A stretch of 35,142 bases of DNA from a virus. Taxonomy: Duplodnaviria > Heunggongvirae > Uroviricota > Caudoviricetes. The position numbers were made by a program, and so were the translations under genes. The stretch is taken from the IMG/VR virus record IMGVR_UViG_2526164668_000014; one strand, given 5' to 3'. This document shows positions 1,323 to 34,147 of the stretch, piece by piece; the first letter of the stretch is position 1; each line of letters opens with the position of its first letter. The notes under the pieces were generated by a model that was not told where the DNA came from, searched no databases, and worked only from the letters and a program-made list of their open reading frames with translations.

Positions 1323-1827
1323 ACAGGCTCGTGAGGCTCTGGATGCCTGGATATGTCGACCAGGAATGACACAGGAGCAGGCGACGATATTAATCACTGA
1401 AGCATTCTGGGCTTTGAAAGAGCGCCCGAACATCGATGTTCAGCGTGTCACAGATGAAGGTGGCGCGGTTGATCAGCGAGCACTTGGCGTTAATCGAGTG
1501 AAGATATTCGAACGCTGGAAGGCTATCGACACCAGGGATAAGCGTGAAAAGTTCACGGCGCTAGTGCCTGCAATTATGGAGGCTATTCGGATTAATGATT
1601 TCAGGTTGTATCGTGAAATTAGTGACGGAAAAAGCATCACGTACATGATCGCCGGGTTAAACAAAGAATATGGCGATGTGGTGGAGTCCGGACTGCTTTT
1701 TGCTGATCCTGCCGTAGTGGATCGTGAAACTGACGAACTTATAGAAAAAGCAATTGCTTTCAAACTTGCGTATCGACAGCAATACCAACAAAAAGCTGGA
1801 TGGAATTATGAGCCTTCTTTTTGCTGA
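1306..1827 (+). CDS. YdaT/YdfX-like phage regulatory protein in the cII position
   Basis: 173-aa ORF overlapping the dicC stop (translational coupling); same position as ydfX in Qin and ydaT in Rac. Confidence 0.6.
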   Translation: MKITPEQAREALDAWICRPGMTQEQATILITEAFWALKERPNIDVQRVTDEGGAVDQRALGVNRVKIFERWKAIDTRDKREKFTALVPAIMEAIRINDFRLYREISDGKSITYMIAGLNKEYGDVVESGLLFADPAVVDRETDELIEKAIAFKLAYRQQYQQKAGWNYEPSFC

Positions 1828-2773
1828 ACGCCCACTGGTTATAAACACACAGCTTGCGATGAAGATTGGCTTAAATGAAGCCATTGTGTTGCAGCAGTTG
1901 CATTACTGGTTGAGAGATACCAATTCCGGCATGGAATGTGATGGTGTTCGCTGGATTTACAACACAACGGAACAATGGCTGGAACAGTTCCCATTCTGGT
2001 CAGAGTCAACGTTAAAGCGCGCGTTTGCAAGTCTGAAAACGCTGGGGCTTTTGCGTTGTGAAAAGCTCAATAAATCAAAGCGCGATATGACCAATTTCTA
2101 CACGATCAACTACGGGAGCGAGCTTTTAGATGGTGGCAAATTGAGCGAATCCATCGGTTTAAAATGCGCCGCTCCATCAGGTCAAAATGACACGATGGAA
2201 GAGGTCAAAATGAAACGCTCCATTGGTTCAAAACGACCCAATGTCATCGGGTCAAAATGGCCTGATGATCTTACAGAGAATACAACAGAGATTACTACAG
2301 AGAATAAAAACACTTTTCGTCCGGAAGCTTCGCAACCGGACCCGCAGACCGCTGAACAGGATTTTTTAACCCGGAACCCCGACGCGGTTGTGTTTAGTGC
2401 GAAAAAACGCCAGTGGGGTAGCAGGGAGGATTTGGCGTGTGCGCAGTGGATTTGGGGGCGGATCGTGAACCTTTACGAACAGGCTGCCAGCGACGATGGA
2501 GAGATCATGCGACCAAAAGAGCCTAACTGGACAGCCTGGGCCAATGACGTGCGCACAATGCGGATGCTGGATGGCAGAAGCCACAGACAAATTTGCGAAA
2601 TGTTTGGTCGGGTACAGCGAGATCAATTCTGGGTAAAAAACATCATGAGCCCGTCAAAACTCCGCGAAAAATGGGACGAACTGGTCATCCGCCTGGGACG
2701 TTCACCTGTAAAGCGTTGTGTGAATCATATTTCTGAACCGGATACAGAAATTCCGCCTGGTTTCAGGGGATAA
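1808..2773 (+). CDS. Phage replication initiation protein (O-like replisome organiser)
   Basis: Start MSLLFAERPLV overlaps the upstream gene; iteron array inside the gene as for lambda O/ori; N-terminal HTH-like region. Confidence 0.65.
   Translation: MSLLFAERPLVINTQLAMKIGLNEAIVLQQLHYWLRDTNSGMECDGVRWIYNTTEQWLEQFPFWSESTLKRAFASLKTLGLLRCEKLNKSKRDMTNFYTINYGSELLDGGKLSESIGLKCAAPSGQNDTMEEVKMKRSIGSKRPNVIGSKWPDDLTENTTEITTENKNTFRPEASQPDPQTAEQDFLTRNPDAVVFSAKKRQWGSREDLACAQWIWGRIVNLYEQAASDDGEIMRPKEPNWTAWANDVRTMRMLDGRSHRQICEMFGRVQRDQFWVKNIMSPSKLREKWDELVIRLGRSPVKRCVNHISEPDTEIPPGFRG
2156..2259. repeat. Iteron array, candidate origin of replication
   Basis: Five copies of GGT(C/T)(A/T)AAA(A/C)(T/C)G starting at 2156, 2180, 2203, 2225 and 2250 (22-25 bp spacing), followed by three ACAGAGA(A/T)TA repeats at 2270-2307. 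Confidence 0.55.
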
Positions 2774-2813
2774 GTGTTGATTTTAGGGTATAAAGTAATG
2801 TTCAGGAGGACTT

Positions 2814-3233
2814 GTGGCAAAAGTTTTTACACAAGAAGAGCGGGAAAAAATTAAAGGGCAGGTGGTGGAACTCGTACGCCAGAGTGGGCGCGAGACGTTA
2901 CGACAACTGGAAGCTAAAACTGGGGCAACAAGATATCTGATGAGCGTTCTGGCCAGAGAGCTGGTTGCCAGTGGCGATGTATACAGCTCTGGTTACGGGT
3001 TATTCCCGTCTGAACAGGCGCGTAAGGACTGGCAAAACGCCCGCAAAAAACTCTCGAGGGCAAAGGTGAAGAAACCTGCTGTGGTTGATCCGGACCTTAT
3101 CTGGTCATTACCTGACGGAGAAATACGTCGCTACGACAGTCGTCTAAACATAATCTGTCGCGAGTGCCGGAAGGCAAGGAGAAGCAGGCTATTGTTAACA
3201 TCAAGCTGTAATGTCCCCTTTGAACCATTCTAA
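2814..3233 (+). CDS. Hypothetical phage protein (GTG start); 3' end abuts the transposase insertion
   Basis: SD CAGGAGGA before GTG; 139 aa; stop lies 34 nt before the transposase ATG, so the C-terminus may be altered by the insertion. Confidence 0.5.
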   Translation: MAKVFTQEEREKIKGQVVELVRQSGRETLRQLEAKTGATRYLMSVLARELVASGDVYSSGYGLFPSEQARKDWQNARKKLSRAKVKKPAVVDPDLIWSLPDGEIRRYDSRLNIICRECRKARRSRLLLTSSCNVPFEPF

Positions 3234-4980
3234 AATGTCCCCAGACAATTCTCTGGGGGATTTTTCATGATCAAAGAGACTGTTACGATGAGTCATAAGG
3301 AACTCCACCGACTTCAGATTATTCAGGAGTCAATTAATCGACATATTACTCAGGAACAAGCTGCGGCACGCATTGGCATTTCTATTCGGCAGGTTAAACG
3401 TCTGGTGCAACGGTATAGAAATGAAGGGCCTTCTGGTCTGGTTTCCCACCGACGTGGAAAGCGTCCTAATAATTCCTTTTCTACTGAATTCAGAGCAACA
3501 GTAATTTCACTCCTCAAAGGCCGTTACGCTGATTTTGGACCTACGTTTGCGTGCGAAAAATTGCGCGAGATACACGGTTTATCTTTATCCGTTGAAACTC
3601 TCAGAAAGTGGATGATAGAAGAGGGGTTATGGCGTGAACGCCGTCGTAAAATTGCCCGTATATATCAACGCCGCATGCGACGACCATCTTACGGTGAACT
3701 GATCCAGATTGATGGCTCACCTCATGACTGGTTTGAAAATCGAGGCCCCAGATGTACACTGATCGTTTTCATTGATGATGCCACCAGTGCGTTGATGGCG
3801 TTGCGTTTTGTGCCTGCTGAAACAACCCGGGCTTACATGGAAACCCTCCGGGGTTACCTTAATGATCATGGCGTACCGCTCGCTCTCTACTCTGATAGAC
3901 ACAGTATATTCAGGGTAAATAACCCAGAGCGGGAAGGTGAGCTGACCCAGTTCACTCGTGCGATAAAGACACTGGGCATCGAGCCAATCCATGCCAACAG
4001 CCCGCAGGCAAAAGGGCGGGTAGAGCGCGCCAATCAGACACTACAGGACAGGCTGGTCAAAGAAATGTGGCTTCAGAATATCAGTGATATTGAAACAGCA
4101 AATGCATGGTTGCCGACCTTTATTGAAGCCTATAACAACCGGTTCGCTACGTCGCCTCGTACTACTGATAATGCTCATCTTGATGTGCACCATTCTGAAG
4201 AGGAACTGGGTTATATCTTCAGCCTACAGGCGAAGCGCGTTCTGTCTAAAAATCTCACTTTCCAGTACAAAAGCAGTGCGTTTCAGGTACGCAGTGAGGG
4301 CCGGGGATATCGACTTAGGCATTCGGTTGTTACTGTATGTGAGAACTTTGACGGTGAAATTAACGTTCTGTATGACGGGAAAGCGCTGGGCTGGGAAAAG
4401 TATGTTGATGGCCCGGAGCCTATACCACTGGATGATGAAAAGAGTGTCCATGAACGAGTGGATAATGCCCGTATTGATTTACGCTCAAAATACTATGTTA
4501 AATCTAAAGCTGACCATCCCTGGCCTACGCGCCGAACGCAAAGTCATCAGCAAGTTAAGCCCCCGAAGTTACCTAAAAAGAAGCCTGATCCCGATAAAAT
4601 AGATTGAAACCAAGATCGATTCGGTTGAGTGCATATCCATTCATAGGGTAGATTCTTAAGTCGCGTTTCTGGTGTTCATTTTCGGGTGGTTTGTTACTTG
4701 TTTTACCGGGGATATGCCAGAAACGCGCTGAGTCAGTCTGGGCGGTGCGCGTAATGAGGCGTTATGGTAAATAGCCTATGCTAATGTCCGCTAAGAGCAA
4801 GAAGCGGAAGTTGGCAGTTTTGTGGACTGTCCCCACAAAAGTGACTACAGAAATAGTTGCAATTCATAATTGATCATGGGTTGTCAGTTAAACTCGTGGC
4901 GATTTAAATAGACTAATTGGGAGTGCGTCCATTACTTATATCTTGTAATGTTAACTATCAGAAATGATACAAAGATAATA
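3200..4980 (+). mobile_element. Insertion sequence carrying the DDE transposase (termini not resolved)
   Basis: Transposase flanked by about 370 bp of non-coding DNA before the flxA terminator; imperfect 20-bp palindrome CCCCAGACAATTCTCTGGGG at 3239-3258. Confidence 0.35.
3267..4607 (+). CDS. DDE (rve integrase-core) transposase of a single-ORF IS (IS481/ISNCY-like)
   Basis: 446 aa; N-terminal HTH; candidate D-D-E residues in IQIDGSPHDW, YSDRHSIF and GRVERANQTLQDRL. Confidence 0.8.
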   Translation: MIKETVTMSHKELHRLQIIQESINRHITQEQAAARIGISIRQVKRLVQRYRNEGPSGLVSHRRGKRPNNSFSTEFRATVISLLKGRYADFGPTFACEKLREIHGLSLSVETLRKWMIEEGLWRERRRKIARIYQRRMRRPSYGELIQIDGSPHDWFENRGPRCTLIVFIDDATSALMALRFVPAETTRAYMETLRGYLNDHGVPLALYSDRHSIFRVNNPEREGELTQFTRAIKTLGIEPIHANSPQAKGRVERANQTLQDRLVKEMWLQNISDIETANAWLPTFIEAYNNRFATSPRTTDNAHLDVHHSEEELGYIFSLQAKRVLSKNLTFQYKSSAFQVRSEGRGYRLRHSVVTVCENFDGEINVLYDGKALGWEKYVDGPEPIPLDDEKSVHERVDNARIDLRSKYYVKSKADHPWPTRRTQSHQQVKPPKLPKKKPDPDKID

Positions 4981-6506: not shown

Positions 6507-6662
6507 ATGAAGCAGCAAAAGGCGATGTTAATCGCCCTGATCGTCATCTGTTTAACCGTCATAGTGACGGCACTGGTAACGAGGAAAGACCTCTGCGAGG
6601 TACGAATCCGAACCGGCCAGACGGAGGTCGCTGTCTTCACAGCTTACGAACCTGAGGAGTAA
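6507..6662 (+). CDS. hokD: HokD (RelF) Hok-family membrane toxin
   Basis: Hand-translated 51-aa ORF MKQQKAMLIALIVICLTVIVTALVTRKDLCEVRIRTGQTEVAVFTAYEPEE, below the ORF-track cutoff; Hok-family hydrophobic helix. Confidence 0.85.
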   Translation: MKQQKAMLIALIVICLTVIVTALVTRKDLCEVRIRTGQTEVAVFTAYEPEE

Positions 6663-6732
6663 GAGACCCGGCGGGGGAGAAATCCCTCGCCACCTCTGAT
6701 GTGGCAGGCATCCTCAACGCACCCGCACTTAA

Positions 6733-6759
6733 CCCGCTTCGGCGGGTTTTTGTTTTTAT
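6733..6759 (+). terminator. Rho-independent terminator after relBE-hokD
   Basis: CCCGCTTCGGCGGG hairpin followed by TTTTTGTTTTT. Confidence 0.65.
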
Positions 6760-6878
6760 TTTCAACGCGTTTGAAGTTCTGGACGGTGCCGGAATAGAAT
6801 CAAAAATACTTAAGTAGCGCGCAGGGATAAGAGGGATGGTCCCTTAAAGGGGAGAGCTAATTATCCGGAAGGATTCTG

Positions 6879-7130
6879 ATGATGAACATCGAAGAACTGC
6901 GTAAAATTTTTTGTGAAGATGGCCTCTATGCTGTGTGCGTTGAAAATGGAAATCTTGTTAGTCATTACCGCATTATGTGTTTGCGAAAGAATGGGGCTGC
7001 GTTAATTAATTTTGTGGATGCTCGGGTCACGGACGGATTTATCTTGCGCGAAGGTGAGTTTGTCACTTCATTACAGGCATTGAAAGAGATCGGAATAAAA
7101 GCTGGCTTTTCTGCTTTTTCAGGAGAATAA
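6879..7130 (+). CDS. rem: Rem (Qin prophage protein of unknown function)
   Basis: 83 aa MMNIEELRKIFCEDGLYAVCVENGNLVS... Confidence 0.85.
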   Translation: MMNIEELRKIFCEDGLYAVCVENGNLVSHYRIMCLRKNGAALINFVDARVTDGFILREGEFVTSLQALKEIGIKAGFSAFSGE

Positions 7131-7196
7131 ACTCATCTACAATCTTGCGCGGGGCTGAACTCCCGCTGAGTAACACCGTGCCACCGGAGAAAACCG

Positions 7197-7475
7197 ATGG
7201 CACGCAACGCAAAATATTACAATTCTGATAATTCGCCCGTTCTTGCCTGCACGCACGGGCGGTATTCTCACGCATTCAAGTCTGAATGGTTCCAGCACCC
7301 TCCATGCACTGCAGAACAGGCCGAATGGCTGATTCATTCTTACCGCAGGCGCGGGTTCGAGGTTAAGAAAGCTCTCAGTCTCGACTATCGGCACTGGATA
7401 ATCTCTGTCAGGCTGCCTTATTCCGAACGCCCACCACGTGCGTCCCGCACTTTCCAGCAACGGATCTGGAGGTAA
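7197..7475 (+). CDS. Hypothetical protein, coupled to ydfU
   Basis: 92-aa ORF with GGAG SD; its stop is 2 nt before the ydfU GTG start. Confidence 0.45.
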   Translation: MARNAKYYNSDNSPVLACTHGRYSHAFKSEWFQHPPCTAEQAEWLIHSYRRRGFEVKKALSLDYRHWIISVRLPYSERPPRASRTFQQRIWR

Positions 7476-7476
7476 C

Positions 7477-8526
7477 GTGCGGGTATTACTTAGACCTGTT
7501 CTGGTGCCTGAGCTTGGGCTGGTGGTCCTTAAGCCGGGCCGTGAATCCATACAGATATTTCATAATCCTCGAGTGCTGGTGGAACCGGAACCAAAAAGCA
7601 TGCGTAATCTGCCATCCGGAGTCGTTCCTGCCGTTCGCCAGCCGCTGGCGGAAGACAAAACATTGCTGCCGTTTTTTAGTAACGAACGGGTGATTCGTGC
7701 TGCTGGCGGCGTTGGCGCATTGTCCGACTGGCTATTACGTCATGTTACATCCTGCCAGTGGCCTAATGGCGATTACCATCACACTGAAACAGTCATTCAC
7801 CGTTATGGTACCGGCGCAATGGTGTTGTGCTGGCACTGCGACAACCAACTGCGTGACCAGACATCGGAATCACTGGAGCTGCTTGCTCAACAAAATCTGA
7901 CAGCATGGGTGATTGACGTCATCCGTCACGCAATAAGCGGTACGCAGGAGCGGGAATTATCTTTGGCTGAATTATCCTGGTGGGCGGTCTGCAATCAGGT
8001 GGTGGATGCACTACCTGAGGCTGTATCGCGTCGTTCGCTGGGATTACCAGCGGAAAAAATCTGCTCGGTGTACCGCGAAAGCGACATCGTACCGGGAGAG
8101 CAGACCGCCACCAGCATATTGAAACAACGCACAAAAAATCTTGCACCGTTGCCTTACGCCCACCAGCAACAAAAATCACCACAGGAAAAGACGGTGGTAA
8201 GCATCACCGTTGATCCAGAGTCTCCGGAATCTTTCATGAAGCTGCCTAAACGTCGCCGCTGGGTTAAGGAGAAATACACACGTTGGGTTAAGACACAGCC
8301 GTGTGCTTGCTGCGGTATGCCAGCCGACGATCCGCATCATCTGATTGGTCACGGGCAGGGCGGAATGGGAACAAAAGCACATGATCTCTTTGTGTTGCCT
8401 TTGTGCAGAAAGCATCACAACGAGCTGCATACGGATACAGTGGCATTTGAAGATAAGTATGGCTCCCAACTGGAGCTGATATTTCGTTTTATCGATCGCG
8501 CGCTGGCAATTGGCGTACTGGCGTAA
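7477..8526 (+). CDS. ydfU: YdfU (DUF968) protein with HNH-like Cys/His motif
   Basis: GTG start after GGAGGT; 349 aa; motif PCACCG...DDPHHLIGHGQ...CRKHHNELH. Confidence 0.85.
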   Translation: MRVLLRPVLVPELGLVVLKPGRESIQIFHNPRVLVEPEPKSMRNLPSGVVPAVRQPLAEDKTLLPFFSNERVIRAAGGVGALSDWLLRHVTSCQWPNGDYHHTETVIHRYGTGAMVLCWHCDNQLRDQTSESLELLAQQNLTAWVIDVIRHAISGTQERELSLAELSWWAVCNQVVDALPEAVSRRSLGLPAEKICSVYRESDIVPGEQTATSILKQRTKNLAPLPYAHQQQKSPQEKTVVSITVDPESPESFMKLPKRRRWVKEKYTRWVKTQPCACCGMPADDPHHLIGHGQGGMGTKAHDLFVLPLCRKHHNELHTDTVAFEDKYGSQLELIFRFIDRALAIGVLA

Positions 8527-8539
8527 GTGGAGAACGAGC

Positions 8540-9292
8540 ATGAACCTTGAAGCCTTACCAAAATATTACTCCCCAAAATCTCCAAAATTGAGCGATGACG
8601 CTCCAGCGACAGGCACCGGTTGTTTAACAATTACGGATGTAATGGCAGCGCAGGGGATGGTGCAGTCGAAAGCACCACTTGGGTTGGCCTTATTTCTGGC
8701 AAAAGTTGGTGTTCAGGACCCTCAGTTTGCGATTGAAGGCCTGCTAAATTACGCGATGGCACTGGATAACCCGACATTGAACAAATTGAGTGAAGAAATC
8801 CGGTTACAGATTATTCCTTACCTCGTGAGTTTTGCCTTTGCTGATTACTCCAGGTCTGCGGCAAGTAAGGCTCGCTGTGAGCATTGTTCAGGTACGGGAT
8901 TTTATAATGTATTGCGCGAAGTGGTGAAACACTACAGACGCGGGGAATCTGTAATCAAGGAAGAATGGGTGAAGGAACTATGTCAGCATTGCCATGGTAA
9001 GGGCGAAGCCAGCACAGCGTGCAGAGGGTGTAAGGGTAAAGGGATTGTTCTGGATGAAAAAAGAACCCGGTTTCATGGCGTACCGGTATATAAGATTTGT
9101 GGGCGTTGTAATGGAAACCGGTTTAGTCGTTTACCGACCACGCTGGCACGACGTCATGTCCAGAAGCTGGTACCAGACCTGACCGATTATCAGTGGTATA
9201 AGGGGTATGCGGACGTCATTGGTAAACTGGTAACAAAGTGCTGGCAGGAAGAAGCATACGCGGAAGCGCAATTGAGGAAGGTGACGAGATAA
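8540..9292 (+). CDS. quuQ: Late-gene antiterminator Q
   Basis: 250 aa MNLEALPKYYSPKSPKL...; Cys-rich zinc-binding region CEHCSGTG...CQHCHGKG...CRGCKGKG. Confidence 0.9.
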   Translation: MNLEALPKYYSPKSPKLSDDAPATGTGCLTITDVMAAQGMVQSKAPLGLALFLAKVGVQDPQFAIEGLLNYAMALDNPTLNKLSEEIRLQIIPYLVSFAFADYSRSAASKARCEHCSGTGFYNVLREVVKHYRRGESVIKEEWVKELCQHCHGKGEASTACRGCKGKGIVLDEKRTRFHGVPVYKICGRCNGNRFSRLPTTLARRHVQKLVPDLTDYQWYKGYADVIGKLVTKCWQEEAYAEAQLRKVTR

Positions 9293-15813: not shown

Positions 15814-16308
15814 ATGGATCGAGAGTTAAAAAATCTGACGCTGAATATCAGTCAATTGGCGGCACTGTCAGGTGTACATCGCCAGACTGCTGCGGCAAGG
15901 CTGCAAAATCTACCCGTTGCAGGGGGGCATGAAAGCAACCTCAAGCTTTATCGGGTGGTTGATATTGTGTCGGCATTTCTGGCATTACCACCGCCGGTTG
16001 CAGAAGGCGAAATGGACGCACATGAGCGCAAAGCCTGGTATCAGTCTGAACGTGAGCGTCTTAAGTTCGAACAGGAAACGGCACAACTCATTCCGGCCAG
16101 TGATGTCAGACGGGAGTTTGCCATCTGGGCAAAAGCGGTCGTGCAGGTGCTGGAGACATTACCGGATATTCTTGAACGTGACTGCGGTCTGCAGCCTGCC
16201 GCTGTGAGCCGTGTTCAGTCCATTATTGATGATCTGCGCGATCAGATAGCCCTGCGGGTGACTGAAGCAGGTGCGGATGATGAGGAGGAATTACAGCAGG
16301 AGGAGTAA
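15814..16308 (+). CDS. Terminase small subunit (Nu1/NohA-like)
   Basis: 164 aa; N-terminal HTH (LNISQLAALSGVHRQTAAARL), acidic C-terminus; stop overlaps the large-subunit ATG. Confidence 0.85.
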   Translation: MDRELKNLTLNISQLAALSGVHRQTAAARLQNLPVAGGHESNLKLYRVVDIVSAFLALPPPVAEGEMDAHERKAWYQSERERLKFEQETAQLIPASDVRREFAIWAKAVVQVLETLPDILERDCGLQPAAVSRVQSIIDDLRDQIALRVTEAGADDEEELQQEE

Positions 16309-18410
16309 TGCTGAATCAGGAAACCGCAAAGGCAGCACGAACCGATTCAGGTTATATCCTTCGCGCACCGAGACGAATGCGGGTTGCTGATGCCGTTGCT
16401 CAGTATATGCGGGTGCCCATGGGGGCAGGGAACTCAGTCCCGTGGGATCCGCTGGTGGCACCGTATGTTATTGAGCCTATGAACTGCCTGGCCTCGCGTG
16501 AATACGACGCAGTGATATTTGTTGGCCCGGCACGAACCGGCAAGACTATCGGCCTGATTGACGGCTGGGTGATTTACAACGTGATTTGCGATCCTGCTGA
16601 TATGCTGATCATTCAGATGACGGAGGAAAAAGCCCGCGAACACTCCAAAAAACGACTCGCCAGAACGTTTCGCGTCAGCCCGGAAGTGGTCAGTCGCCTG
16701 AGTCCGAACAAAAATGACAACAACGTTTATGACAGAACATTCCTTGCTGGCAACTACCTGAAAATCGGCTGGCCGTCAGTCAATATCATGTCTTCATCAG
16801 ATTATAAATGCGTGGCGCTGACGGATTATGACCGTTTTCCGGAAGATATTGATGGTGAGGGGGATGCCTTCTCTCTTGCCTCAAAACGTACCACCACATT
16901 TATGTCCAGTGGTATGACGCTTGTGGAGAGTTCCCCCGGCAGGGATGTGAAGGATGTGAAATGGCGACGGACTTCACCGCATGAGGCTCCACCAACCACG
17001 GGGATCCTGTCGCTCTATAACCGTGGCGATCGCCGTCGCTGGTACTGGCCCTGTCCACACTGTGGTGAGTATTTTCAGCCCTGCGGCGATGTGGTTGCTG
17101 GTTTCCGTGATATTGCCGATCCTGTGCTGGCAAGTGAGGCGGCTTATATTCAGTGTCCTTCCTGTTCAGGACGGATTTTGCCTGAACAAAAACGCGAGCT
17201 GAACGGACGTGGGGTCTGGTTACGGGATGGTGAATCCATCAATGCAGATGGCAGTCGTTATGGTGATCCCCGGCGTTCACGTATTGCGTCATTCTGGATG
17301 GAGGGTCCGGCAGCTGCTTATCAGACACTCTCGCAACTCGTTTACAAACTGCTTACTGCAGAACAGGAATACGAGACAACCGGAAGTGAAGAGACACTCA
17401 AGACGGTTATCAATACCGACTGGGGATTACCTTATCTTCCCCGCGCCAGCATGGAGCAACGAAAAAGTGAATTGCTTGAGCAGCGGGCAGAGCCAGTTCC
17501 TTCCCGCAGTGTGCCGGATGGCGTTAATTTCCTTGTGGCGACAGTGGATGTGCAGGCGGGACGTCATCGCCGTTTTGTGGTTCAGGTAACGGGCTATGGC
17601 AGCCGTGGCGAACGCTGGATTATTGATCGTTACAACATCACGCAGTCATTGCGCGGTGACAGCGACGGGGAGAGCCAGCGAATTGATCCGGCCAGCTATC
17701 CGGAAGACTGGGATGTCCTGCTGACGGATGTTTTTCATAAAAGCTGGCCGCTGGCCTCCGCCCCTTCTCAACAAATGCGACTGATGGCAATGGCGGTGGA
17801 CTCCGGCGGTGAAGACGGGGTCACTGATAATGCCTATAAATTCTGGCGTCGTTGCCGTCGTGATGGCCTTGGTAAACGTATTTACCTGTTTAAGGGCGAC
17901 AGCATCCGGCGAGCAAAACTGATCACCCGTACATTCCCTGATAACACCGGACGAACGGGCCGACGGGCGCAGGCCGCAGGTGATGTGCCGCTCTGGCTTC
18001 TTCAGACGGATGCCCTGAAAGACCGGGTGAATAACGCGTTATGGCGTGACTCGCCAGGTCCCGGCTATGTGCATTTCCCTGACTGGCTGGGGAGCTGGTT
18101 TTACGACGAACTGACGTATGAAGAGCGGAGCAGTGACGGGAAATGGAGTAAGCCGGGTCGCGGTGCCAACGAAGCTTTTGACCTGATGGTGTATGCCGAG
18201 GCTCTGGTCATTCTGCATGGATACGAAAAGATCCGCTGGCCGGATGCACCGGAGTGGGCGAGCCGGGAAACCTGGCTGGAGTGTGTCCCGGACAGTACCG
18301 AACCGTCACCCTCACCGGAACCGGTACCCACGCCTGTTAAAAAACAAAAACGGAAGAAAACAGTAACTGACGATGTTAACCCCTGGCTGACTTCCGGAGG
18401 ATGGTTATGA
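16308..18410 (+). CDS. Terminase large subunit (gpA family)
   Basis: 700 aa; Walker A-like GPARTGKT; Cys cluster CPHCGEYF...CPSCSGRI. Confidence 0.9.
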   Translation: MLNQETAKAARTDSGYILRAPRRMRVADAVAQYMRVPMGAGNSVPWDPLVAPYVIEPMNCLASREYDAVIFVGPARTGKTIGLIDGWVIYNVICDPADMLIIQMTEEKAREHSKKRLARTFRVSPEVVSRLSPNKNDNNVYDRTFLAGNYLKIGWPSVNIMSSSDYKCVALTDYDRFPEDIDGEGDAFSLASKRTTTFMSSGMTLVESSPGRDVKDVKWRRTSPHEAPPTTGILSLYNRGDRRRWYWPCPHCGEYFQPCGDVVAGFRDIADPVLASEAAYIQCPSCSGRILPEQKRELNGRGVWLRDGESINADGSRYGDPRRSRIASFWMEGPAAAYQTLSQLVYKLLTAEQEYETTGSEETLKTVINTDWGLPYLPRASMEQRKSELLEQRAEPVPSRSVPDGVNFLVATVDVQAGRHRRFVVQVTGYGSRGERWIIDRYNITQSLRGDSDGESQRIDPASYPEDWDVLLTDVFHKSWPLASAPSQQMRLMAMAVDSGGEDGVTDNAYKFWRRCRRDGLGKRIYLFKGDSIRRAKLITRTFPDNTGRTGRRAQAAGDVPLWLLQTDALKDRVNNALWRDSPGPGYVHFPDWLGSWFYDELTYEERSSDGKWSKPGRGANEAFDLMVYAEALVILHGYEKIRWPDAPEWASRETWLECVPDSTEPSPSPEPVPTPVKKQKRKKTVTDDVNPWLTSGGWL

Positions 18411-18619
18411 ATCAGAATGATATTGAAGCCATGATTCAGCGTTATACGGAAGCTGAAATGGCGGTGCTGGACGGAAAATCCGTCACTTTTAATGGTCAGC
18501 AGATGACCATGGAAAACTTATCTGAGATCCGGCAGGGGCGGCAGGAGTGGGAGCGCCGCCTTGCGGCTCTGATTACACGACGACGGGGGCATCCCGGGTA
18601 CCGGCTGGCGAGGTTCTGA
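18407..18619 (+). CDS. W: gpW-like head completion protein
   Basis: About 70 aa; GGAGG SD before the second ATG; ATGA overlap with the terminase stop and TGATG overlap with the portal start. Confidence 0.7.
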   Translation: MNQNDIEAMIQRYTEAEMAVLDGKSVTFNGQQMTMENLSEIRQGRQEWERRLAALITRRRGHPGYRLARF

Positions 18620-20127
18620 TGGCAATTCTTGATGATGTGATTGGCGTTTTTTCACCAGGATGGAAAGCGGCAAGGCTGCGTTCCCGTGCGGTGATCCAGG
18701 CTTATGAGGCCGTAAAAACGACGCGGACACACAAAGCCCGACGGGAGAACCGAACTGCCGACCAGTTAAGCCAGTACGGGGCCGTGTCGTTACGTGAGCA
18801 GGCTCGTTACCTTGATAACAACCACGATCTGGTCATTGGTGTATTTGACAAGCTGGAAGAACGGGTGGTGGGGAAAAACGGGATTATTGTCGAGCCACAT
18901 CCGGTATTACGCAATGGGGCCATTGCCCGTGATCTGGCAGCGGAGATACGTACCCGATGGAGTGAATGGTCTGTCAGTCCGGAGGTCACCGGGCAGTTTA
19001 CCCGTCCGATGCTGGAACGTCTGATGCTGCGTACCTGGCTGCGCGATGGTGAGGTGTTTGCCCAGATGGTTTCCGGGCGCATAAACAGCCTGACGCCTTC
19101 TGCCGGTGTTCATTTCTGGCTGGAGGCGCTCGAGCCGGACTTTATTCCCATGACCAGTGATGAGAGCAACAGGCTGAATCAGGGCGTGTTTGTTGATGAC
19201 TGGGGGCGTCCCGAAAAATATCTGGTGTATAAAAGCCGTCCCGTATCCGGGCGGCAGATGGAAACCAAAGAAGTGGATGCAGAGCGAATGCTGCATCTTA
19301 AATTTGTTCGCCGTCTGCACCAGATGCGCGGGACGTCTTTGTTGTCCGGTGTGCTGATCCGCCTCAGTGCTCTGAAAGAGTATGAAGATTCTGAGCTGAC
19401 TGCAGCAAGGATCGCCGCTGCTCTGGGGATGTACATCCGGAAAGGCGACGGACAGAGCTATGAAACGGATGGTAATGACAGCAAGGAGAATGAACGCGAG
19501 CTTACCATTCAGCCAGGCATTATTTACGACGATCTGAAACCCGGCGAAGAAATCGGAATGGTGAAGTCGGATCGCCCCAATCCTAACCTTGAAACTTTTC
19601 GTAATGGTCAGTTGCGTGCCGTGGCTGCGGGCAGTCGTCTGAGTTTTTCCAGTACAGCGCGCAACTATAACGGCACCTACAGCGCCCAGCGTCAGGAGCT
19701 GGTTGAATCTACTGATGGCTACCTGATCCTGCAGGACTGGTTTATTGGTGCCGTCACCCGCCCGATGTACCGTGCCTGGCTGAAACAGGCTGTGGTATCC
19801 GGTGTTATCAGGCTACCCCGCGATCTGGACCGATCTTCACTGTATACCGCGGTGTATTCCGGACCGGTGATGCCGTGGATTGACCCTGTTAAGGAGGCTG
19901 AGGCCTGGAAAATTCAGATTCGTGGTGGAGCGGCGACAGAATCAGACTGGGTACGTGCAGGTGGTCGTAATCCAGATGATGTCAAACGTCGGCGCAAGGC
20001 CGAAATTGATGAAAACCGCAAGCTGGATCTGGTATTTGATACCGATCCGGCCAGTGATAAAGGAGGCAGCAGTGCCGCAACGAAACGACAGGAGCCGCAG
20101 CACACCGACGACCAGTCCGAAGAATAA
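18619..20127 (+). CDS. B: Portal protein (lambda gpB family)
   Basis: 502 aa from MAILDDVIGVF...; positioned between W and the protease/capsid gene. Confidence 0.85.
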   Translation: MAILDDVIGVFSPGWKAARLRSRAVIQAYEAVKTTRTHKARRENRTADQLSQYGAVSLREQARYLDNNHDLVIGVFDKLEERVVGKNGIIVEPHPVLRNGAIARDLAAEIRTRWSEWSVSPEVTGQFTRPMLERLMLRTWLRDGEVFAQMVSGRINSLTPSAGVHFWLEALEPDFIPMTSDESNRLNQGVFVDDWGRPEKYLVYKSRPVSGRQMETKEVDAERMLHLKFVRRLHQMRGTSLLSGVLIRLSALKEYEDSELTAARIAAALGMYIRKGDGQSYETDGNDSKENERELTIQPGIIYDDLKPGEEIGMVKSDRPNPNLETFRNGQLRAVAAGSRLSFSSTARNYNGTYSAQRQELVESTDGYLILQDWFIGAVTRPMYRAWLKQAVVSGVIRLPRDLDRSSLYTAVYSGPVMPWIDPVKEAEAWKIQIRGGAATESDWVRAGGRNPDDVKRRRKAEIDENRKLDLVFDTDPASDKGGSSAATKRQEPQHTDDQSEE

Positions 20128-20140
20128 TTCCTGGTTCAGG

Positions 20141-22099
20141 ATGCAGGCAGGTCACCAGAGTGACGCGGATATTTATATTTATGACGAGATTGGTTTCTGG
20201 GGTGTTACGGCGAAGCAGTTTATCAGTGATCTGAATGCACTGGGCGATATCACCCACATTAATCTCCATATTAATTCACCGGGTGGCGATGTCTTTGAAG
20301 GCATCGCCATTTTTAATGCACTGAAAACACATGGTGCGTCCATTACCGTTTATGTCGACGGTGTGGCGGCGTCAATGGCGTCGGTCATTGCGATGGTGGG
20401 AAACCCGGTCATTATGCCGGAAAACTCCTTCATGATGATTCATAAACCATTTGGCTTTACGGGCGGTGATGCGGAGGACATGCGCACCTATGCCGACCTG
20501 CTCGATAAAGTTGAGGCGGTTCTGTTACCCGCTTATGCACAGAAAACCGGGAAAACCACAGATGAAATTGCTGCCATGCTGGCGGATGAGACCTGGATGT
20601 CCGGTGCCGAATGTCTGGCACAGGGATTTGCTGATCAGGTGACACCAGCCGTTAAGGCAATGGCATGTATTCAGTCAAAACGTACAGAGGAATTTAAAAA
20701 GATGCCGGAATCCATTCGAAATATGATTACTCCGCCACGCAACAGTGCTCCACGCGTACAGGATGATGGACCTGCAGCCTCCCGGACACCAGTGCAGGCA
20801 GCAGCACCCGTGGTGGATGAAAACAGCATCCGTGCGCAGGTCCTGGCAGAGCAAAAAGCGCGTGTAAACGGTATTAATGATCTGTTTGCCATGTTTGGCG
20901 GGCGTTATCAGTCGTTGCAGGCTCAGTGTCTTGCCGATCCTGAATGTTCGCTGGAGCAGGCCCGCGAAAAGCTGTTGAACGAGATGGGGCGCGAGTCCAC
21001 GCCATCCAATAAAAATACCCCGGCTCATATTTATGCCGGTAACGGTAATTTTGTGGGGGACGGGATCCGCCAGGCGCTGATGGCGCGCGCCGGGTTTGAA
21101 AAAACTGAACGTGATAATGTCTACAACGGGATGACCCTGCGTGAATATGCCCGTATGTCACTGACTGAACGTGGTATTGGTGTTTCCAGTTATAACCCGA
21201 TGCAGATGGTCGGTGCGGCGTTCACACACAGTACGTCTGACTTCGGTAATATTCTGCTGGATGTTGCGAACAAAGCCATTCTGCAGGGCTGGGAAGATGC
21301 CCCTGAAACCTATGAACAGTGGACGCGGAAAGGTCAGTTGTCTGATTTTAAAATTGCCCATCGTGTGGGTATGGGGGGCTTCAGTGCTCTGCGTCAGGTG
21401 CGTGAAGGGGCAGAATATAAATACGTCACCACCGGAGATAAACAGGCCACTATTGCACTGGCGACCTATGGCGAGCTGTTCAGTATCACCCGTCAGGCCA
21501 TTATCAATGATGATCTGAATATGCTGACCGATGTCCCGATGAAGCTGGGCCGTGCGGCGAAATCCACTATTGCCGATCTGGTTTATGCCATTCTGACGTC
21601 TAACCCGAAAATCTCCACAGATAATGTAAGTCTGTTCGATAAAGCGAAACATGCAAACGTACTGGAGAGCGCGGCAATGGACGTGGCATCGCTGGATAAA
21701 GCCCGCCAGTTGATGCGCGTTCAGAAAGAGGGTGAGCGTCATCTGAATATTCGTCCTGCGTTCGTACTGGTACCGACGGCGATGGAGTCTGTTGCTAACC
21801 AGGTCATTCGCTCCTCAAGTGTCAAGGGGGCTGACATTAACGCCGGTATTATTAACCCGGTGAAAGATTTTGCGACCGTTATTGCAGAGCCTCGTCTTGA
21901 TGATAACAGCCAGACCACCTTCTACCTGGCTGCGTCCAAAGGCTCCGATACGATTGAAGTGGCTTATCTCAACGGTGTGGATACGCCATATATTGATCAG
22001 ATGGAGGGCTTCAGTGTGGATGGCGTGACAACGAAAGTGCGTATTGACGCTGGTGTTGCGCCAGTTGATCACCGCGGCCTGGTGAAATGTACGGCGTAA
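20141..22099 (+). CDS. Prohead protease (ClpP/S14-like) fused to major capsid protein
   Basis: 652 aa; N-terminal ClpP-like region with GVAASMASVI serine motif; C-terminal region about 330 aa in the major-capsid position; followed by a terminator. Confidence 0.8.
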   Translation: MQAGHQSDADIYIYDEIGFWGVTAKQFISDLNALGDITHINLHINSPGGDVFEGIAIFNALKTHGASITVYVDGVAASMASVIAMVGNPVIMPENSFMMIHKPFGFTGGDAEDMRTYADLLDKVEAVLLPAYAQKTGKTTDEIAAMLADETWMSGAECLAQGFADQVTPAVKAMACIQSKRTEEFKKMPESIRNMITPPRNSAPRVQDDGPAASRTPVQAAAPVVDENSIRAQVLAEQKARVNGINDLFAMFGGRYQSLQAQCLADPECSLEQAREKLLNEMGRESTPSNKNTPAHIYAGNGNFVGDGIRQALMARAGFEKTERDNVYNGMTLREYARMSLTERGIGVSSYNPMQMVGAAFTHSTSDFGNILLDVANKAILQGWEDAPETYEQWTRKGQLSDFKIAHRVGMGGFSALRQVREGAEYKYVTTGDKQATIALATYGELFSITRQAIINDDLNMLTDVPMKLGRAAKSTIADLVYAILTSNPKISTDNVSLFDKAKHANVLESAAMDVASLDKARQLMRVQKEGERHLNIRPAFVLVPTAMESVANQVIRSSSVKGADINAGIINPVKDFATVIAEPRLDDNSQTTFYLAASKGSDTIEVAYLNGVDTPYIDQMEGFSVDGVTTKVRIDAGVAPVDHRGLVKCTA

Positions 22100-22185
22100 A
22101 CGTCGCAGACAACAACTCTGATGGCCCGTAAGGGCTTTTTTTGTACCTGAAATCAGCCCCTGAACGGGGCTGTGCGGAGACAGTT

Positions 22186-22509
22186 ATGGCAAAGAATTTT
22201 GTAGAAGAAGGAAAAACGGTGGCGATTGTTGCCAGTGCAGCCATCAGCAGCGGAGATCTGGTGCAGGTGGGTGATGTTTTTGCGGTGGCGCTGACCGATA
22301 TTCCACAGGGAGAAACAGGCGACGGCATAACCGAAGGTGTGTTTATGCTGCCTAAGCTGAAAACGGATGACATGAAAACGGGTAAGAAGGTTTATCTGAA
22401 GTCAGGAAAAGTTCAGCTGACTAACAGCGGCTCTGATCCGCTGGTCGGGGTTGTATGGGCAGATGCCGGAACCAGTGCAGAAGAAGTGCCGGTAAAACTC
22501 AATGTCTGA
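22186..22509 (+). CDS. Small head-associated protein (possible decoration or connector protein)
   Basis: 107 aa after GGAGA SD, directly downstream of the capsid gene. Confidence 0.5.
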   Translation: MAKNFVEEGKTVAIVASAAISSGDLVQVGDVFAVALTDIPQGETGDGITEGVFMLPKLKTDDMKTGKKVYLKSGKVQLTNSGSDPLVGVVWADAGTSAEEVPVKLNV

Positions 22510-22777
22510 TCCCTTTTCCCGGCTGGCAGCGCGTATGGATGCGATCACGGTCAGAAAGATGGGAAAGACAGCCTCGATTAATGATGTCGATATGACTGTG
22601 ATCCCGGGAGAAACACTGGCAGAGCTGAATGCTCTGTCCGGACCTGCGGTCTCTCTGGTGGTGTTTTCTTCGGGATACCGCCCACGGCGCGGGGATCGCG
22701 TTGTTTATGACGGACAACAATGGACGGTCACACGGCATGAACGTTTTAACAGTAAGCCAATGATCTTTATTGAGTAA
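22502..22777 (+). CDS. Head-tail joining protein (hypothetical)
   Basis: 91-aa ORF overlapping the previous stop. Confidence 0.5.
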   Translation: MSDPFSRLAARMDAITVRKMGKTASINDVDMTVIPGETLAELNALSGPAVSLVVFSSGYRPRRGDRVVYDGQQWTVTRHERFNSKPMIFIE

Positions 22778-22788
22778 AGAGGTGTGGG

Positions 22789-23367
22789 ATGAAGGGGCTT
22801 GAGAATGCCATCCGCAATCTGAACAGCCTTGATACCCGTATGGTGCCACAGGCCAGCGCATGGGCGATAAACCGTTTGGCACAGAAAGCGGTCTCGGTTG
22901 CCACCCGGCAGGTTGCCGGGAATACCGTTGCGGGAGATAACCAGGTGAAAGGGATCCCCCTGAAACTGGTACGTCAGCGTGTCCGGGTGTTTAAAGCCAG
23001 TCCGTCAGGAAAAATGACGGCCAGGATCCGCGTTAACCGGGGCAATCTGCCCGCCATTAAGCTGGGGACAGCCCGGGTCAGACTGGCCCGGCGTGGTGGA
23101 AAACTGCAGTACCGTGGCAGTGTGCTGAAGGTGGGTAAATATCTTTTCCGGGATGCGTTTATTCAGCAACTGGCGAATGGTCGCTGGCATGTGATGCGAC
23201 GTATTGATGGCAAAAATCGTTACCCCATTGATGTGGTGAAAATCCCGCTGTCCGGACCGCTGACACAGGCATTTGAAGATGCCCGCGACCACATCATTGC
23301 TGCGGAAATGCCGAAACAGCTTGGGTATGCACTGAAACAACAACTGAGGTTATGGCTGACCCGATGA
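22789..23367 (+). CDS. Z: Tail completion protein Z-like
   Basis: 192 aa; conserved GRWHVMRRIDGKNRYPIDVVKIP segment as in lambda Z; gene order. Confidence 0.7.
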   Translation: MKGLENAIRNLNSLDTRMVPQASAWAINRLAQKAVSVATRQVAGNTVAGDNQVKGIPLKLVRQRVRVFKASPSGKMTARIRVNRGNLPAIKLGTARVRLARRGGKLQYRGSVLKVGKYLFRDAFIQQLANGRWHVMRRIDGKNRYPIDVVKIPLSGPLTQAFEDARDHIIAAEMPKQLGYALKQQLRLWLTR

Positions 23368-23765
23368 ACCGACATACACAAATCCGCCAGGCCGTACTGG
23401 CACGCCTTCGGGAACAGTGTGGAGACAGCGCCACGTTTTTTGACGGGCTTCCGGCATTTATTGATGCGCAGGAACTGCCTGCCGTGGCGGTGTGGCTGAG
23501 TGATGCTCAGTACACCGGAAAAATGACGGATGAAGATGACTGGCAGGCTGTTCTGCATATTGCCGTCTTCATCCGGGCACAGGCACCGGATTCAGAGCTG
23601 GATATGTGGATGGAGAGCACCATTTTCCCTGCCCTGAATGATATACCGGCACTTTCCGGACTCATCGACACCCTGATCCCACTCGGTTTTAACTATCAAC
23701 GTGATAATGAGATGGCCACCTGGGCGATGGCGGAAATCACGTACCAGATCACGTACACGAATTAA
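23364..23765 (+). CDS. U: Tail terminator protein U-like
   Basis: MNRHTQIRQAVLARL...ATFFDG...PAVAVWL matches remembered lambda U; ATGA overlap with the Z stop. Confidence 0.75.
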   Translation: MNRHTQIRQAVLARLREQCGDSATFFDGLPAFIDAQELPAVAVWLSDAQYTGKMTDEDDWQAVLHIAVFIRAQAPDSELDMWMESTIFPALNDIPALSGLIDTLIPLGFNYQRDNEMATWAMAEITYQITYTN

Positions 23766-23775
23766 GGAGGTGGTA

Positions 23776-24519
23776 ATGACCACACCAAATCCACTGGCAA
23801 AGACGAAAGGTGCGGGGACGACGTTCTGGATGTATACCGGCAACGGCGATGCGTTTGCGAACCCTTTGTCGGACACTGACTGGCTGCGTCTTGCGATGGT
23901 GAAGGATCTGCAACCTGGCGAAATGACCGCTGATGCAGAAGATGACACTTATCTCGATGATGAAGATGCAGACTGGAAAACGACAACCCAGGGGCAGAAA
24001 TCCGTTGGTGATACTTCGGCGACGCTGGCCTGGCGTCCGGGTGACAGCGGGCAGAAAAAACTGGTTCAGTTGTTCGACTCCGGTGAAGTCTGCGCGTTTC
24101 GTATCAAATATCCCAACGGCACTGTTGATGTTTTCCGTGGCTGGCTGAGCTCACTGGGTAAAACCATTGCCTCAAAAGACGTGATGACCCGCACTGTGAA
24201 AATCAGCGGTGTGGGGCGTCCGTATCTGGCAGAGGAAGGCACTGAAACCGTGAGCGTTACCGGGCTGACAGTATCACCGGCGTCTGCCAGTGTAAAAGTG
24301 GGAGCAACCACCACGCTGACCTTTACAGTAAAACCTGACGGAGCCAGTGACAAAGCGATCAGTGTGCATTCGTCAGATCCACAGACTGCCACGGTTACCC
24401 TGAACGGACTTGTGGCCACGGTAAAAGGCGTGAAGCAGGGCAGTGTCAGCATTGTGGGCATGACCGCTGACGGGAATTTTGTGGCTGTGACTGCGGTGAC
24501 TGTCAGCGCAGCAGGTTAA
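23776..24519 (+). CDS. V: Major tail protein V with C-terminal Ig-like (Big_2) domain
   Basis: AAGGAGG SD; 247 aa; C-terminal TVSPASASVKVGATTTLTFTVKPDGASD... Ig-like repeat. Confidence 0.85.
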   Translation: MTTPNPLAKTKGAGTTFWMYTGNGDAFANPLSDTDWLRLAMVKDLQPGEMTADAEDDTYLDDEDADWKTTTQGQKSVGDTSATLAWRPGDSGQKKLVQLFDSGEVCAFRIKYPNGTVDVFRGWLSSLGKTIASKDVMTRTVKISGVGRPYLAEEGTETVSVTGLTVSPASASVKVGATTTLTFTVKPDGASDKAISVHSSDPQTATVTLNGLVATVKGVKQGSVSIVGMTADGNFVAVTAVTVSAAG

Positions 24520-24539
24520 CAGGACGATACTCATCATTT

Positions 24540-24563
24540 GCCCCGGTTATGCGGGGCTTTTTT
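24540..24563 (+). terminator. Rho-independent terminator between V and G
   Basis: GCCCCG-GTTATG-CGGGGC hairpin followed by TTTTTT. Confidence 0.6.
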
Positions 24564-24576
24564 GCAGGTGGAGAAC

Positions 24577-24966
24577 ATGATGTTTCTGAAACAGGACACG
24601 TTTAATTATGAAAAACAGTCCGTGGTGCTCAGTGAGCTGTCCGGGCTGCAGAGAATTGAATATCTGACGTTTGTTCAGCAGCGAACGGCAAAGTTTGATG
24701 CCGGGGAGGGAGAACTGCCGGAGGCTGAACGACAGATTGCTTTTCTGCGGATGGGGATGGATATCAATGCCTGGCTGGTTTCCCGCTCACTGTGGAATGC
24801 GGATCAGTCTAAGGATGTAGAGACGCTTTGCGCATCCGTTATTACAACATGGTCGTATGATGCCCTGGGTGCGGGGGCGGAGATGGTTCTGTCGCTGAGC
24901 GGTATGGGGGCCATTGATAATGCCGTGGATGATGAGCATGAGGCGCTGACGCCGGAAAAGTCCTGA
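24577..24966 (+). CDS. G: Tail assembly chaperone G
   Basis: MMFLKQDTFNYEKQSVVLSELSGLQRIEYL resembles remembered lambda G (MFLKTESFEHNGVTVTLSELSALQRIEHL). Confidence 0.8.
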   Translation: MMFLKQDTFNYEKQSVVLSELSGLQRIEYLTFVQQRTAKFDAGEGELPEAERQIAFLRMGMDINAWLVSRSLWNADQSKDVETLCASVITTWSYDALGAGAEMVLSLSGMGAIDNAVDDEHEALTPEKS

Positions 24967-25304
24967 CGCGGGAAATGCAGTTTGTCATGCGGCTTGCCCG
25001 GGAGTTCCGGCGGGCAGACTGGCGGCGGATGCTGTCGGAAATGTCTGCCACTGAGCTTGGTGAGTGGGGCGATTATTTCCGGATGCAGAGCTTCAGTGAT
25101 GTGTGGATGGATGCACAGTTTGCCTCGCTGAAGGCATTGATCGTGAGAATGGTGTCCGGCAGCAGTGATGCTGCGGTGGCTGATTTCAGCCTTTTACCGG
25201 AAGAGAACGGGATACCGGAGCGAACGGACGAAGAACTGATGCATCTTGGGGAAGGTATTTCCGGAGGTGTGCGTTATGGACCAGATAGCCAACCTGGTCA
25301 TTGA
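24942..25304 (+). CDS. T: T segment of the G-T chaperone, expected to be expressed by a -1 frameshift from G
   Basis: The -1 frame is open from 24942 and overlaps the last 8 codons of G; candidate slip site GGAAAAG at 24954-24960. Confidence 0.6.
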   Translation, partial: GADAGKVLTREMQFVMRLAREFRRADWRRMLSEMSATELGEWGDYFRMQSFSDVWMDAQFASLKALIVRMVSGSSDAAVADFSLLPEENGIPERTDEELMHLGEGISGGVRYGPDSQPGH

Positions 25305-28670: not shown

Positions 28671-28679
28671 GAGTCTCTG

Positions 28680-29378: not shown

Positions 29379-29383
29379 ATCCC

Positions 29384-30672: not shown

Positions 30673-30691
30673 TGAAAAACGTTTATGTGAA

Positions 30692-30712: not shown

Positions 30713-30731
30713 CGTTTCTGGAGCGTGAGGA

Positions 30732-34127: not shown

Positions 34128-34147
34128 ATTTTATAACCCATATACGG

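Follow-up and report, generated by a model that had tools for sequence, protein, structure and literature searches.

The three genes that precede the late antiterminator gene Q in a Qin-type lambdoid prophage of Escherichia coli comprise, on the reading that we favor at a probability of roughly 60%, an antirepressor gene, rem, and a nonessential nin-region DNA-processing module made up of orf92 and ydfU. All three are real, conserved, ordinary, and mostly already described genes, and the impact of their analysis on the field is small: the K-12 genes are annotated, the role of Rem is published, and so is the assignment of YdfU to the HNH class. The family to which orf92 belongs, a group of ~66-aa proteins designated PHROG 1212, sits in many temperate enterobacterial phages with unusual constancy before four different nin-region nucleases, which provides a hypothesis that is cheap to test; we found no earlier description in the papers that we consulted of this constancy of a PHROG 1212 gene ahead of different nin nucleases before Q.

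Gene content of the locus

Over the 2 kb from position 6700 to position 8700, the window (the whole 35,142-nucleotide stretch of DNA that was analyzed) is 100% identical to K-12-type Qin strains, 99.8% identical to Escherichia phage PhiR42_1, and 93.5% identical to phage HannyBb. In K-12-type Qin, RefSeq gives the order relB, relE, hokD, rem, WP_012304870.1, ydfU, and ydfT/Q, and PGAP retains the name rem, calls the orf92 counterpart WP_012304870.1 a “hypothetical protein,” and calls ydfU a “DUF968 domain-containing protein.” An earlier note on this DNA had placed three co-directional ORFs ahead of Q, and rem, orf92, and ydfU are found there, intact and each 100% identical to K-12-type Qin, among the following features.

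6731-6748: hokD terminator
6771-6800, + strand: sigma-70-like site TTGAAG-18-TAGAAT between the hokD terminator and rem, 9 of 12 consensus matches, a candidate rem promoter only
6879-7130, + strand: rem, 83 aa, antirepressor of the Qin repressor DicA; equals K-12 Rem WP_000980994.1; phrog_340 at 4e-21
7197-7475, + strand: orf92, 92 codons, PHROG 1212 family, a real gene
7197-7274, + strand: orf92 codons 1 to 26, fast-evolving disordered tail
7275-7472, + strand: orf92 codons 27 to 92, conserved beta-alpha-beta-beta core plus basic C-terminal tail PPRxSRTFQQRIWR
7468-7472, + strand: GGAGG Shine-Dalgarno sequence for ydfU, within the last orf92 codons (TGG AGG TAA)
7477-8526, + strand: ydfU, 349 aa, GTG start as in RefSeq
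7477-8151, + strand: ydfU N-terminal domain, residues 1 to 225, with a conserved Cys/His cluster
7753-7839, + strand: N-terminal Cys/His cluster of ydfU (C93, H101/H102, C118, C121), on a beta-hairpin plus helix
8152-8211, + strand: low-confidence linker of ydfU, residues 226 to 245 (pLDDT below 50 at residues 230 to 240), its length varying among homologues
8212-8526, + strand: C-terminal zinc-finger HNH (His-Me finger) domain of ydfU
8302-8313, 8335-8340, and 8404-8430, + strand: parts of the HNH domain, respectively the CxxC pair C276/C279, the HH pair 287-288, and C310/H313/H314/H318, with D303 between the last two
8540-9292, + strand: Q (ydfT/quuQ), late antiterminator, the downstream neighbor at which the nin region ends (Pfam Antiterm, 3.6e-54; RefSeq)

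A coupled gene pair and a separate insert

The stop codon of orf92 (TAA, 7473 to 7475) is separated by a single base, C7476, from the ydfU GTG at 7477, so that the reported distance of 2 nt is accurate when counted from the last base of the stop codon to the GTG. The mechanical ORF list starts ydfU at another GTG, at 7438 (362 aa), and RefSeq at 7477 (349 aa); the longer model, which overlaps orf92, was dropped because the N termini of 28 homologues (26 to 61% identity) all align with the start at GTG 7477. Queries with orf92 and one diverged relative recovered 160 related loci from IMG/VR, and in every one of the 157 in which ydfU is visible (those whose contigs reach far enough past orf92), orf92 is followed by ydfU with the same 1-nt spacing. 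orf92 and ydfU are a translationally coupled pair.

rem stands apart from this pair. Its GC content (0.40 to 0.44, with a strong G>C skew) differs from that of orf92 and ydfU (0.50 to 0.57); it went undetected in most loci recovered with the diverged orf92, where the layout is hok-orf92-ydfU; and in distant relatives the slot upstream of the YdfU homologue is filled by antirepressor-type genes of the ANT, pRha, or KilA-N kinds. Because its composition is distinct, it is absent from many related loci, and its slot is variable in relatives, rem is a separate mosaic insert that lies outside any three-gene unit. The tightly coupled three-gene block described in the earlier note thus reduces to orf92 and ydfU, with rem excluded on both composition and occurrence.

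Rem is a published antirepressor

The same note held that none of the three genes has an established function, which for rem is incorrect. Rem, which came to light in iterative searches that started from the Gifsy-1 antirepressor GfoA (Ragunathan 2023, J Bacteriol, PMC10448788), is a published antirepressor of DicA: its expression derepressed the DicA-controlled promoter dicBp 165-fold and caused filamentation that was DicB and DicF dependent, and this relief of DicA was shown experimentally with a protein of identical sequence to the one encoded here (PMC10448788). Rem thus inactivates the CI-like Qin repressor DicA and turns on the dicBF early-left operon, and its gene occupies the nin slot that ANT, pRha, or KilA-N antirepressor-type genes fill in related phages. 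Between hokD and rem (6660 to 6880) there is no LexA box (CTGT-N8-ACAG, at most 1 mismatch), and the sigma-70-like site in this interval is weak, its 9 of 12 matches not exceeding the shuffle expectation. The PADLOC and NCBIfam models gave no significant match; that of Rem to SocB had an E value of 0.0099 (14.9 bits against a cutoff of 210).

Purifying selection on all three genes

Median pairwise dN/dS values (Nei-Gojobori) are 0.13 for rem, 0.10 for codons 27 to 92 of orf92, and 0.13 for ydfU overall, with 0.12 in its N-terminal domain and 0.07 in its HNH domain; only codons 1 to 26 of orf92 reach 0.63. rem, the orf92 core, and ydfU are under purifying selection. Among 55 distinct DNA sequences of orf92, not one is disrupted, and variable sites fall 37/43/73 at codon positions 1/2/3. 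The C-terminal 26 codons are nearly invariant, and since their variable sites are distributed 6/7/20, this segment is conserved at the protein level.

These data contradict a reading, very improbable in our estimation, in which a cryptic prophage is decaying and the genes left in it serve no present function. That Qin is defective in K-12, where a strong Rho-dependent terminator has been reported upstream of ydfU, would fit such decay, but all three genes are under purifying selection, every distinct orf92 version is undisrupted, the sequenced genomes of phages HannyBb, PhiR42_1, and mEp460_ev081 share the trio (mEp460_ev081 is reported to be a functional temperate phage), and large ORFs elsewhere in the window resemble a full structural module. 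Owing to the terminator, the orf92-ydfU pair may nevertheless be poorly expressed in the K-12 cryptic prophage. Older K-12 annotations show 346 bp of “intergenic” DNA between rem and ydfU; this gap is in fact a coding gene under selection, orf92, and its coding status bears on how the Rho-dependent terminator mapped there is read.

orf92 belongs to a family that usually precedes nin-region nucleases

Residues 27 to 92 of orf92 match the PHROG 1212 profile over its full length (positions 1 to 66 of 66; E of 1.7e-35), and orf92 is the Qin version of this widespread ~66-aa phage protein, extended at its N terminus by a disordered tail. Only Escherichia and Shigella have close homologues (129 clusters), and tblastn recovered more distant ones of ~66 aa, at 33 to 48% identity, in Gifsy-1/2, N15, PY54, SPN3UB, mEp237, and phiES15 as well as in phages of Klebsiella, Edwardsiella, Hafnia, Erwinia, and Pantoea. 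The C-terminal motif of the family (PRPSRTxQQRIW) is conserved and basic, and it is best kept in Qin-type and phiES15-type members. No relationship was detected between orf92 and lambda NinD, NinE, NinF, or NinH, P1 PdcA, or Rem, nor between orf92 and the small ORFs that precede the genes of two distant YdfU homologues.

The genes that follow the PHROG 1212 gene vary. It abuts the gene for NinG in Gifsy-2 and Edwardsiella GF-2, a YbcO-family HNH gene (then rusA and Q) in mEp237 and phiES15, and a DUF968 gene in Klebsiella phage ST846-OXA48phi9.1, and in N15 it precedes an RNase T-type exonuclease. Two single-protein scans with PHROG 1212 members returned 111 further IMG/VR loci with the order DUF1367 or YbcN, small gene, and then NinG (95 loci), YbcO (13), or RusA (1). 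The IMG/VR counts, here and above, are dominated by prophages of Salmonella and E. coli that are nearly identical to one another, and they do not represent independent observations. By exception, a Dcm methylase follows the PHROG 1212 gene of Erwinia Eho59, and in PY54 and Enterobacter MII_001 the gene is followed by unknown ORFs; conversely, no PHROG 1212 gene lies upstream of the mEp460/SfV-type YdfU homologues (57% identity).

Judging from these gene neighborhoods, we conclude that orf92 is a genuine gene of the nin region and moves together with the nuclease slot, and, because PHROG 1212 genes usually lie directly upstream of the slot nuclease (YdfU, YbcO, NinG, or RusA), orf92 is most likely an accessory factor of a nuclease-slot DNA-processing module. 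A direct partnership with the nuclease is not obligatory, since mEp460/SfV-type YdfU proteins lack the small gene and a methyltransferase or unknown gene sometimes follows it, and the association may amount to conserved gene order only.

The arrangement of a small gene followed by a nuclease, translationally coupled in the manner of type II toxin-antitoxin operons, would also suit a toxin-antitoxin, nuclease-immunity, abortive-infection, or superinfection-exclusion module in which orf92 neutralizes a toxic HNH nuclease, particularly as the pair adjoins relBE and hokD, the P1 homologue adjoins phd-doc, and HNH domains are common as defense effectors (Cap5 and McrA). We regard this possibility as improbable: PADLOC returned no match for any of the three proteins other than PglZ at an E value of 0.078, YdfU homologues both at 57% identity and more distant occur without any PHROG 1212 gene (co-occurrence of the two is therefore not obligate), the same small protein accompanies the unrelated, nontoxin nucleases NinG, YbcO, and RusA, and the genes are placed and oriented like ordinary delayed-early nin genes, with readthrough toward Q.

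YdfU carries a zinc-finger HNH domain

The Cys/His-rich, HNH-like motif noted earlier in YdfU is present, with PCACCG at residues 275 to 280, DDPHH at 284 to 288, and CRKHHNELH at 310 to 318. Residues 160 to 346 cover the whole Pfam model PF06147 (DUF968) at 256.8 bits (cutoff, 27.8; E of 1.4e-76), and two further Pfam models, HNHc_6 and RecA_dep_nuc (the Ref family), match below threshold. The full-length protein corresponds to phrog_96, labeled “HNH endonuclease” in PHROGs, and phrog_11007 spans residues 2 to 134. This classification was already known: DUF968 together with DUF1364 (YbcO; PDB 3G27) makes up group 7 of the His-Me finger superfamily, in a survey in which YdfU is named (PMC5714182). 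A search of 1.84 billion representative proteins returned 2,885 relatives of YdfU, and ~30 of the matches listed are full-length homologues at 26 to 58% identity.

Two clusters of residues are conserved in the homologue alignment. (i) The N-terminal cluster reads C93-Q...(C/H)101...C118-W-(H)-(C/H)121-D-N, with C93, C118, W119, and D122 invariant or kept in at least 90% of 29 to 36 homologues. (ii) The C-terminal cluster, preceded by a basic lead-in at residues 255 to 272, reads PK...WV..QPC276xxC279G...D-P-H287-H288...D303...P308-L-C310-R-x-H313-H314-x-E-L-H318; across 36 homologues, C276 and D303 never vary, H287 and H288 are kept in at least 90%, and C279, C310, H313, H314, and H318 are also present. 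The catalytic and zinc residues C276, H287, H288, D303, and P308 are conserved in homologues at 26 to 87% identity. Loss of the HH dyad in three very distant homologues (P0199, P0211, and P0266) means that catalysis is not a uniform property of the family.

An AlphaFold2 model built from 36 sequences (mean pLDDT, 87.6) has an N-terminal alpha/beta domain at residues 1 to 225 (pLDDT of 81 to 96 up to residue 190 and 70 to 87 over residues 191 to 225), a low-confidence linker at 230 to 240, and a C-terminal beta-beta-alpha unit formed by strands 285-288 and 306-309 and helix 311-319. The catalytic His at the end of strand 1, the metal-ligand residues on the helix, and the CxxC...C..H zinc knuckle are all in place. 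Structure prediction, which had been proposed as a check on the nuclease assignment, returned a beta-beta-alpha-metal nuclease fold as expected of a DUF968/HNH protein. The HNH domains of IscB, McrA, Cap5, and GVE2 were named alongside the model.

Against the PDB, neither Foldseek (no match with an E value below 0.68) nor sequence comparison of YdfU (no profile matches; one nonsignificant single-sequence match at an E value of 0.32) gave anything significant, and the N-terminal domain has no convincing relative among solved structures. In the model, the hairpin and helix bearing C93, H101, C118, and C121 resemble a treble-clef-type zinc site, and we infer that this putative site may bind zinc. 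From its predicted fold and its neighborhood, YdfU would be a DNA nuclease, its activity and substrate being predictions from these two sources; our literature search found no published nuclease assay of YdfU, YbcO, or PdcB.

YdfU homologues occupy a fixed place before the late regulator

The position of ydfU had been likened to that in which lambdoid phages keep recombination or nuclease nin genes, and the wider comparison agrees: homologues are the last or near-last gene before the late regulator, or lie beside rusA. The order is RusA, KilA-N, YdfU-like, and Q in mEp460 and SfV; small ORF, DUF968, and Q in a Klebsiella phage; and ANT or pRha, YdfU-like, and then Q or RusA in metagenomic and genomic contigs. 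One protein (P0055) is a RusA+DUF968 fusion, and DUF968 fusions to Erf, Rad52, and RusA have been noted (PMC4118853). A mosaic boundary falls within ydfU, whose 3' third, together with Q, shares 89% DNA identity with mEp460/SfV-type phages, while the rest shares 57% protein identity with that type.

This boundary, and a patchy distribution among lambdoid phages, are what might be seen if ydfU were a selfish mobile gene that does nothing for the phage and encodes a free-standing homing HNH endonuclease. Such an origin strikes us as unlikely, given that the gene keeps a fixed site, either beside RusA or as the final nin gene ahead of Q, across phages of Escherichia, Klebsiella, Vibrio, and Serratia and P1-like phages, that conservation of the 225-residue N-terminal domain extends over this whole range, that YdfU resembles Ref and YbcO and not the I-HmuI-type homing enzymes, and that dN/dS is 0.07 to 0.13. 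As an HNH protein of a phage, YdfU might also be the terminase-associated one that serves cos cleavage and packaging, like HK97 gp74, and the structural module of this lambdoid genome is apparently intact. We consider this role extremely unlikely for YdfU, since packaging HNH proteins are small and adjoin terS, whereas ydfU lies ~8 kb upstream of the presumed, unannotated large terminase (a 700-aa ORF at 16308), with Q, csp genes, and the lysis cassette in between, and the P1 homologue PdcB is nonessential.

A proposed DNA-processing module in the nin region

We return to the reading of orf92-ydfU as a nonessential DNA-processing module. The two would be delayed-early genes, the last before the late regulator Q. 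The N-terminal domain of YdfU (~225 residues) would bind zinc and recognize DNA or a partner protein, and a flexible linker ties it to a zinc-finger HNH (beta-beta-alpha-metal) nuclease domain of the DUF968/YbcO/Ref type. YdfU would then act as a nonessential DNA endonuclease on recombination or replication intermediates during lytic growth, as lambda Rap/NinG, RusA, and P1 Ref do, and would be neither a sequence-specific nor a packaging nuclease. Such a recombination- or replication-associated, structure-directed role is supported by the pre-Q/RusA context, the dispensability of PdcB, the resemblance to Ref and YbcO, and the RusA-DUF968 fusion. orf92 may interact with YdfU in this process.

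A more speculative extension, which we think doubtful, is that PHROG 1212 proteins are dedicated, interchangeable accessory subunits of nin-region structure-specific nucleases and that the N-terminal domain of YdfU is a new zinc-binding, substrate-reading fold, together constituting a new two-component phage recombination nuclease. If this were so, the C-terminal motif of PHROG 1212 would dock on a conserved target, whether a host replication or recombination factor or DNA, and the docked protein would recruit or license whichever nuclease is cotranslated with it. In any case, YdfU/PdcB is a widespread nuclease-like protein of temperate phages (Escherichia, Klebsiella, Salmonella, Vibrio, Yersinia, and Serratia phages and P1) with an N-terminal domain that has no structural match.

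Comparison with known systems

Rem is like the small GfoA-type antirepressors of the Gifsy phages in relieving a short, noncleavable CI-type repressor, but the Gifsy antirepressors are LexA controlled, whereas rem has no upstream LexA box.

For YdfU, several nucleases bear comparison. The Gram-positive DUF968 proteins, such as phiETA Orf20, have been described as Orf (NinB)-HNH fusions (Curtis 2014, PMC4118853); they share with YdfU the Pfam family name and the C-terminal HNH motif, and an Orf-like RAGNYA N-terminal domain was not detected in YdfU, which we accordingly do not class as such a fusion. YbcO of DLP12 and phage 82 (DUF1364; PDB 3G27) consists of the ~96-aa HNH core alone, whereas YdfU has an additional N-terminal region of 245 residues. 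Lambda NinG/Rap and RusA, the junction-specific nucleases of the nin region, occupy the same pre-Q slot as YdfU, and NinG has a similar CxxC...H motif. Membership of YdfU in the NinG/Rap family was considered and rejected (no PF05766 match; hhalign probability of 6%, over a 19-residue zinc-knuckle motif only), and because YdfU often co-occurs with RusA, it is no simple replacement for RusA.

Phage P1 supplies two further comparisons, as it carries both ref and a true YdfU homologue, pdcB. Ref, a RecA-dependent HNH endonuclease (PDB 3PLW; PF16786), matches the YdfU profile over the zinc knuckle and HH core with an hhalign probability of 77% (E of 2e-5), the PF16786 model itself scoring below its cutoff on YdfU (17.8 bits against 26.9; E of 0.0037). 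The N terminus of Ref is a disordered, basic segment of 76 residues (Gruber 2015); YdfU has in its place no such highly basic, disordered segment but a confidently folded Cys/His domain of ~225 residues, and only the short basic stretch at 255 to 272 leads into its core. PdcB, in contrast, is a full-length homologue of YdfU (residues 32 to 348, 26% identity, E of 6e-29; DUF968 at 3.6e-50), and in the P1 order phd-doc, pdcA, pdcB, lpa its gene has a toxin-antitoxin module and then a 66-aa ORF ahead of it and the late-gene activator immediately behind. The late regulator differs (Lpa in P1, Q in Qin), and PdcA has no detectable kinship to orf92 (hhalign probability of 0). PdcB is nonessential, as evidenced by CRISPRi knockdown and by recovery of a pdcB::kan insertion mutant, and this dispensability matches the behavior of the lambda nin genes.

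A Rho-dependent terminator within orf92

In K-12, a terminator described as lying "upstream of ydfU" ranked among the strongest Rho-dependent terminators (PMC9160355), and the supplement to that study shows that in Rho-impaired cells the expression of ydfU rises and that of rem does not. This places the terminator, which lies between rem and ydfU (window 7130-7476), inside the orf92 coding sequence, where the strand carries an excess of C over G (about 7100-7450).

In some deposited phage annotations (ON470583, ON470612, and ON470619; matches H131-H133), the orf92 homologue is labeled "toxin to Rem," a label for which we found no supporting evidence. Small ORFs precede distant YdfU homologues (37-42% identity) at two other loci, one of 114 aa at L165 (3653-3997) and one of 57 aa at L168 (2828-3001), and these stop 0-3 nt ahead of the YdfU-homologue start; neither has any sequence relationship to orf92.

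Flanking genes and the prophage at large

Gifsy antirepressors are LexA controlled, whereas no LexA box was found before Qin rem (6771-6878). Two features precede the gene:

6731-6748, hokD terminator
6771-6800, weak sigma-70-like site, the only element found between the hokD terminator and rem

Besides its Antiterm domain, Qin Q contains a match to the DnaJ-type CXXCXGXG zinc finger (1.3e-08; 8986-9180), and precomputed Pfam also assigns PF27659 (CHP02642) to Q-containing proteins.

Upstream of flxA and ydfV is an ORF that is missing from the K-12-like Qin locus:

3267-4607, 446-aa transposase with HTH domains and an rve_3 integrase core

At 16308-34797, large ORFs (700, 526, 739, 1031, and 1131 aa) point to an intact set of terminase, portal, head, and tail genes, and the prophage is therefore far less decayed than its K-12 counterpart, Qin. 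Across 6700-8700 it is 99.8% identical to Escherichia phage PhiR42_1 (ECOR13), which it resembles.

Comparison with phage P1

The P1 locus (L173) has the following order:

1592-3989, the toxin-antitoxin module phd-doc, the 66-aa pdcA, the YdfU homologue pdcB, and the late activator lpa

This layout mirrors the Qin series of relBE/hokD, small ORF, ydfU, and Q, although PdcA and orf92, which occupy the same place in the gene order, are unrelated proteins.
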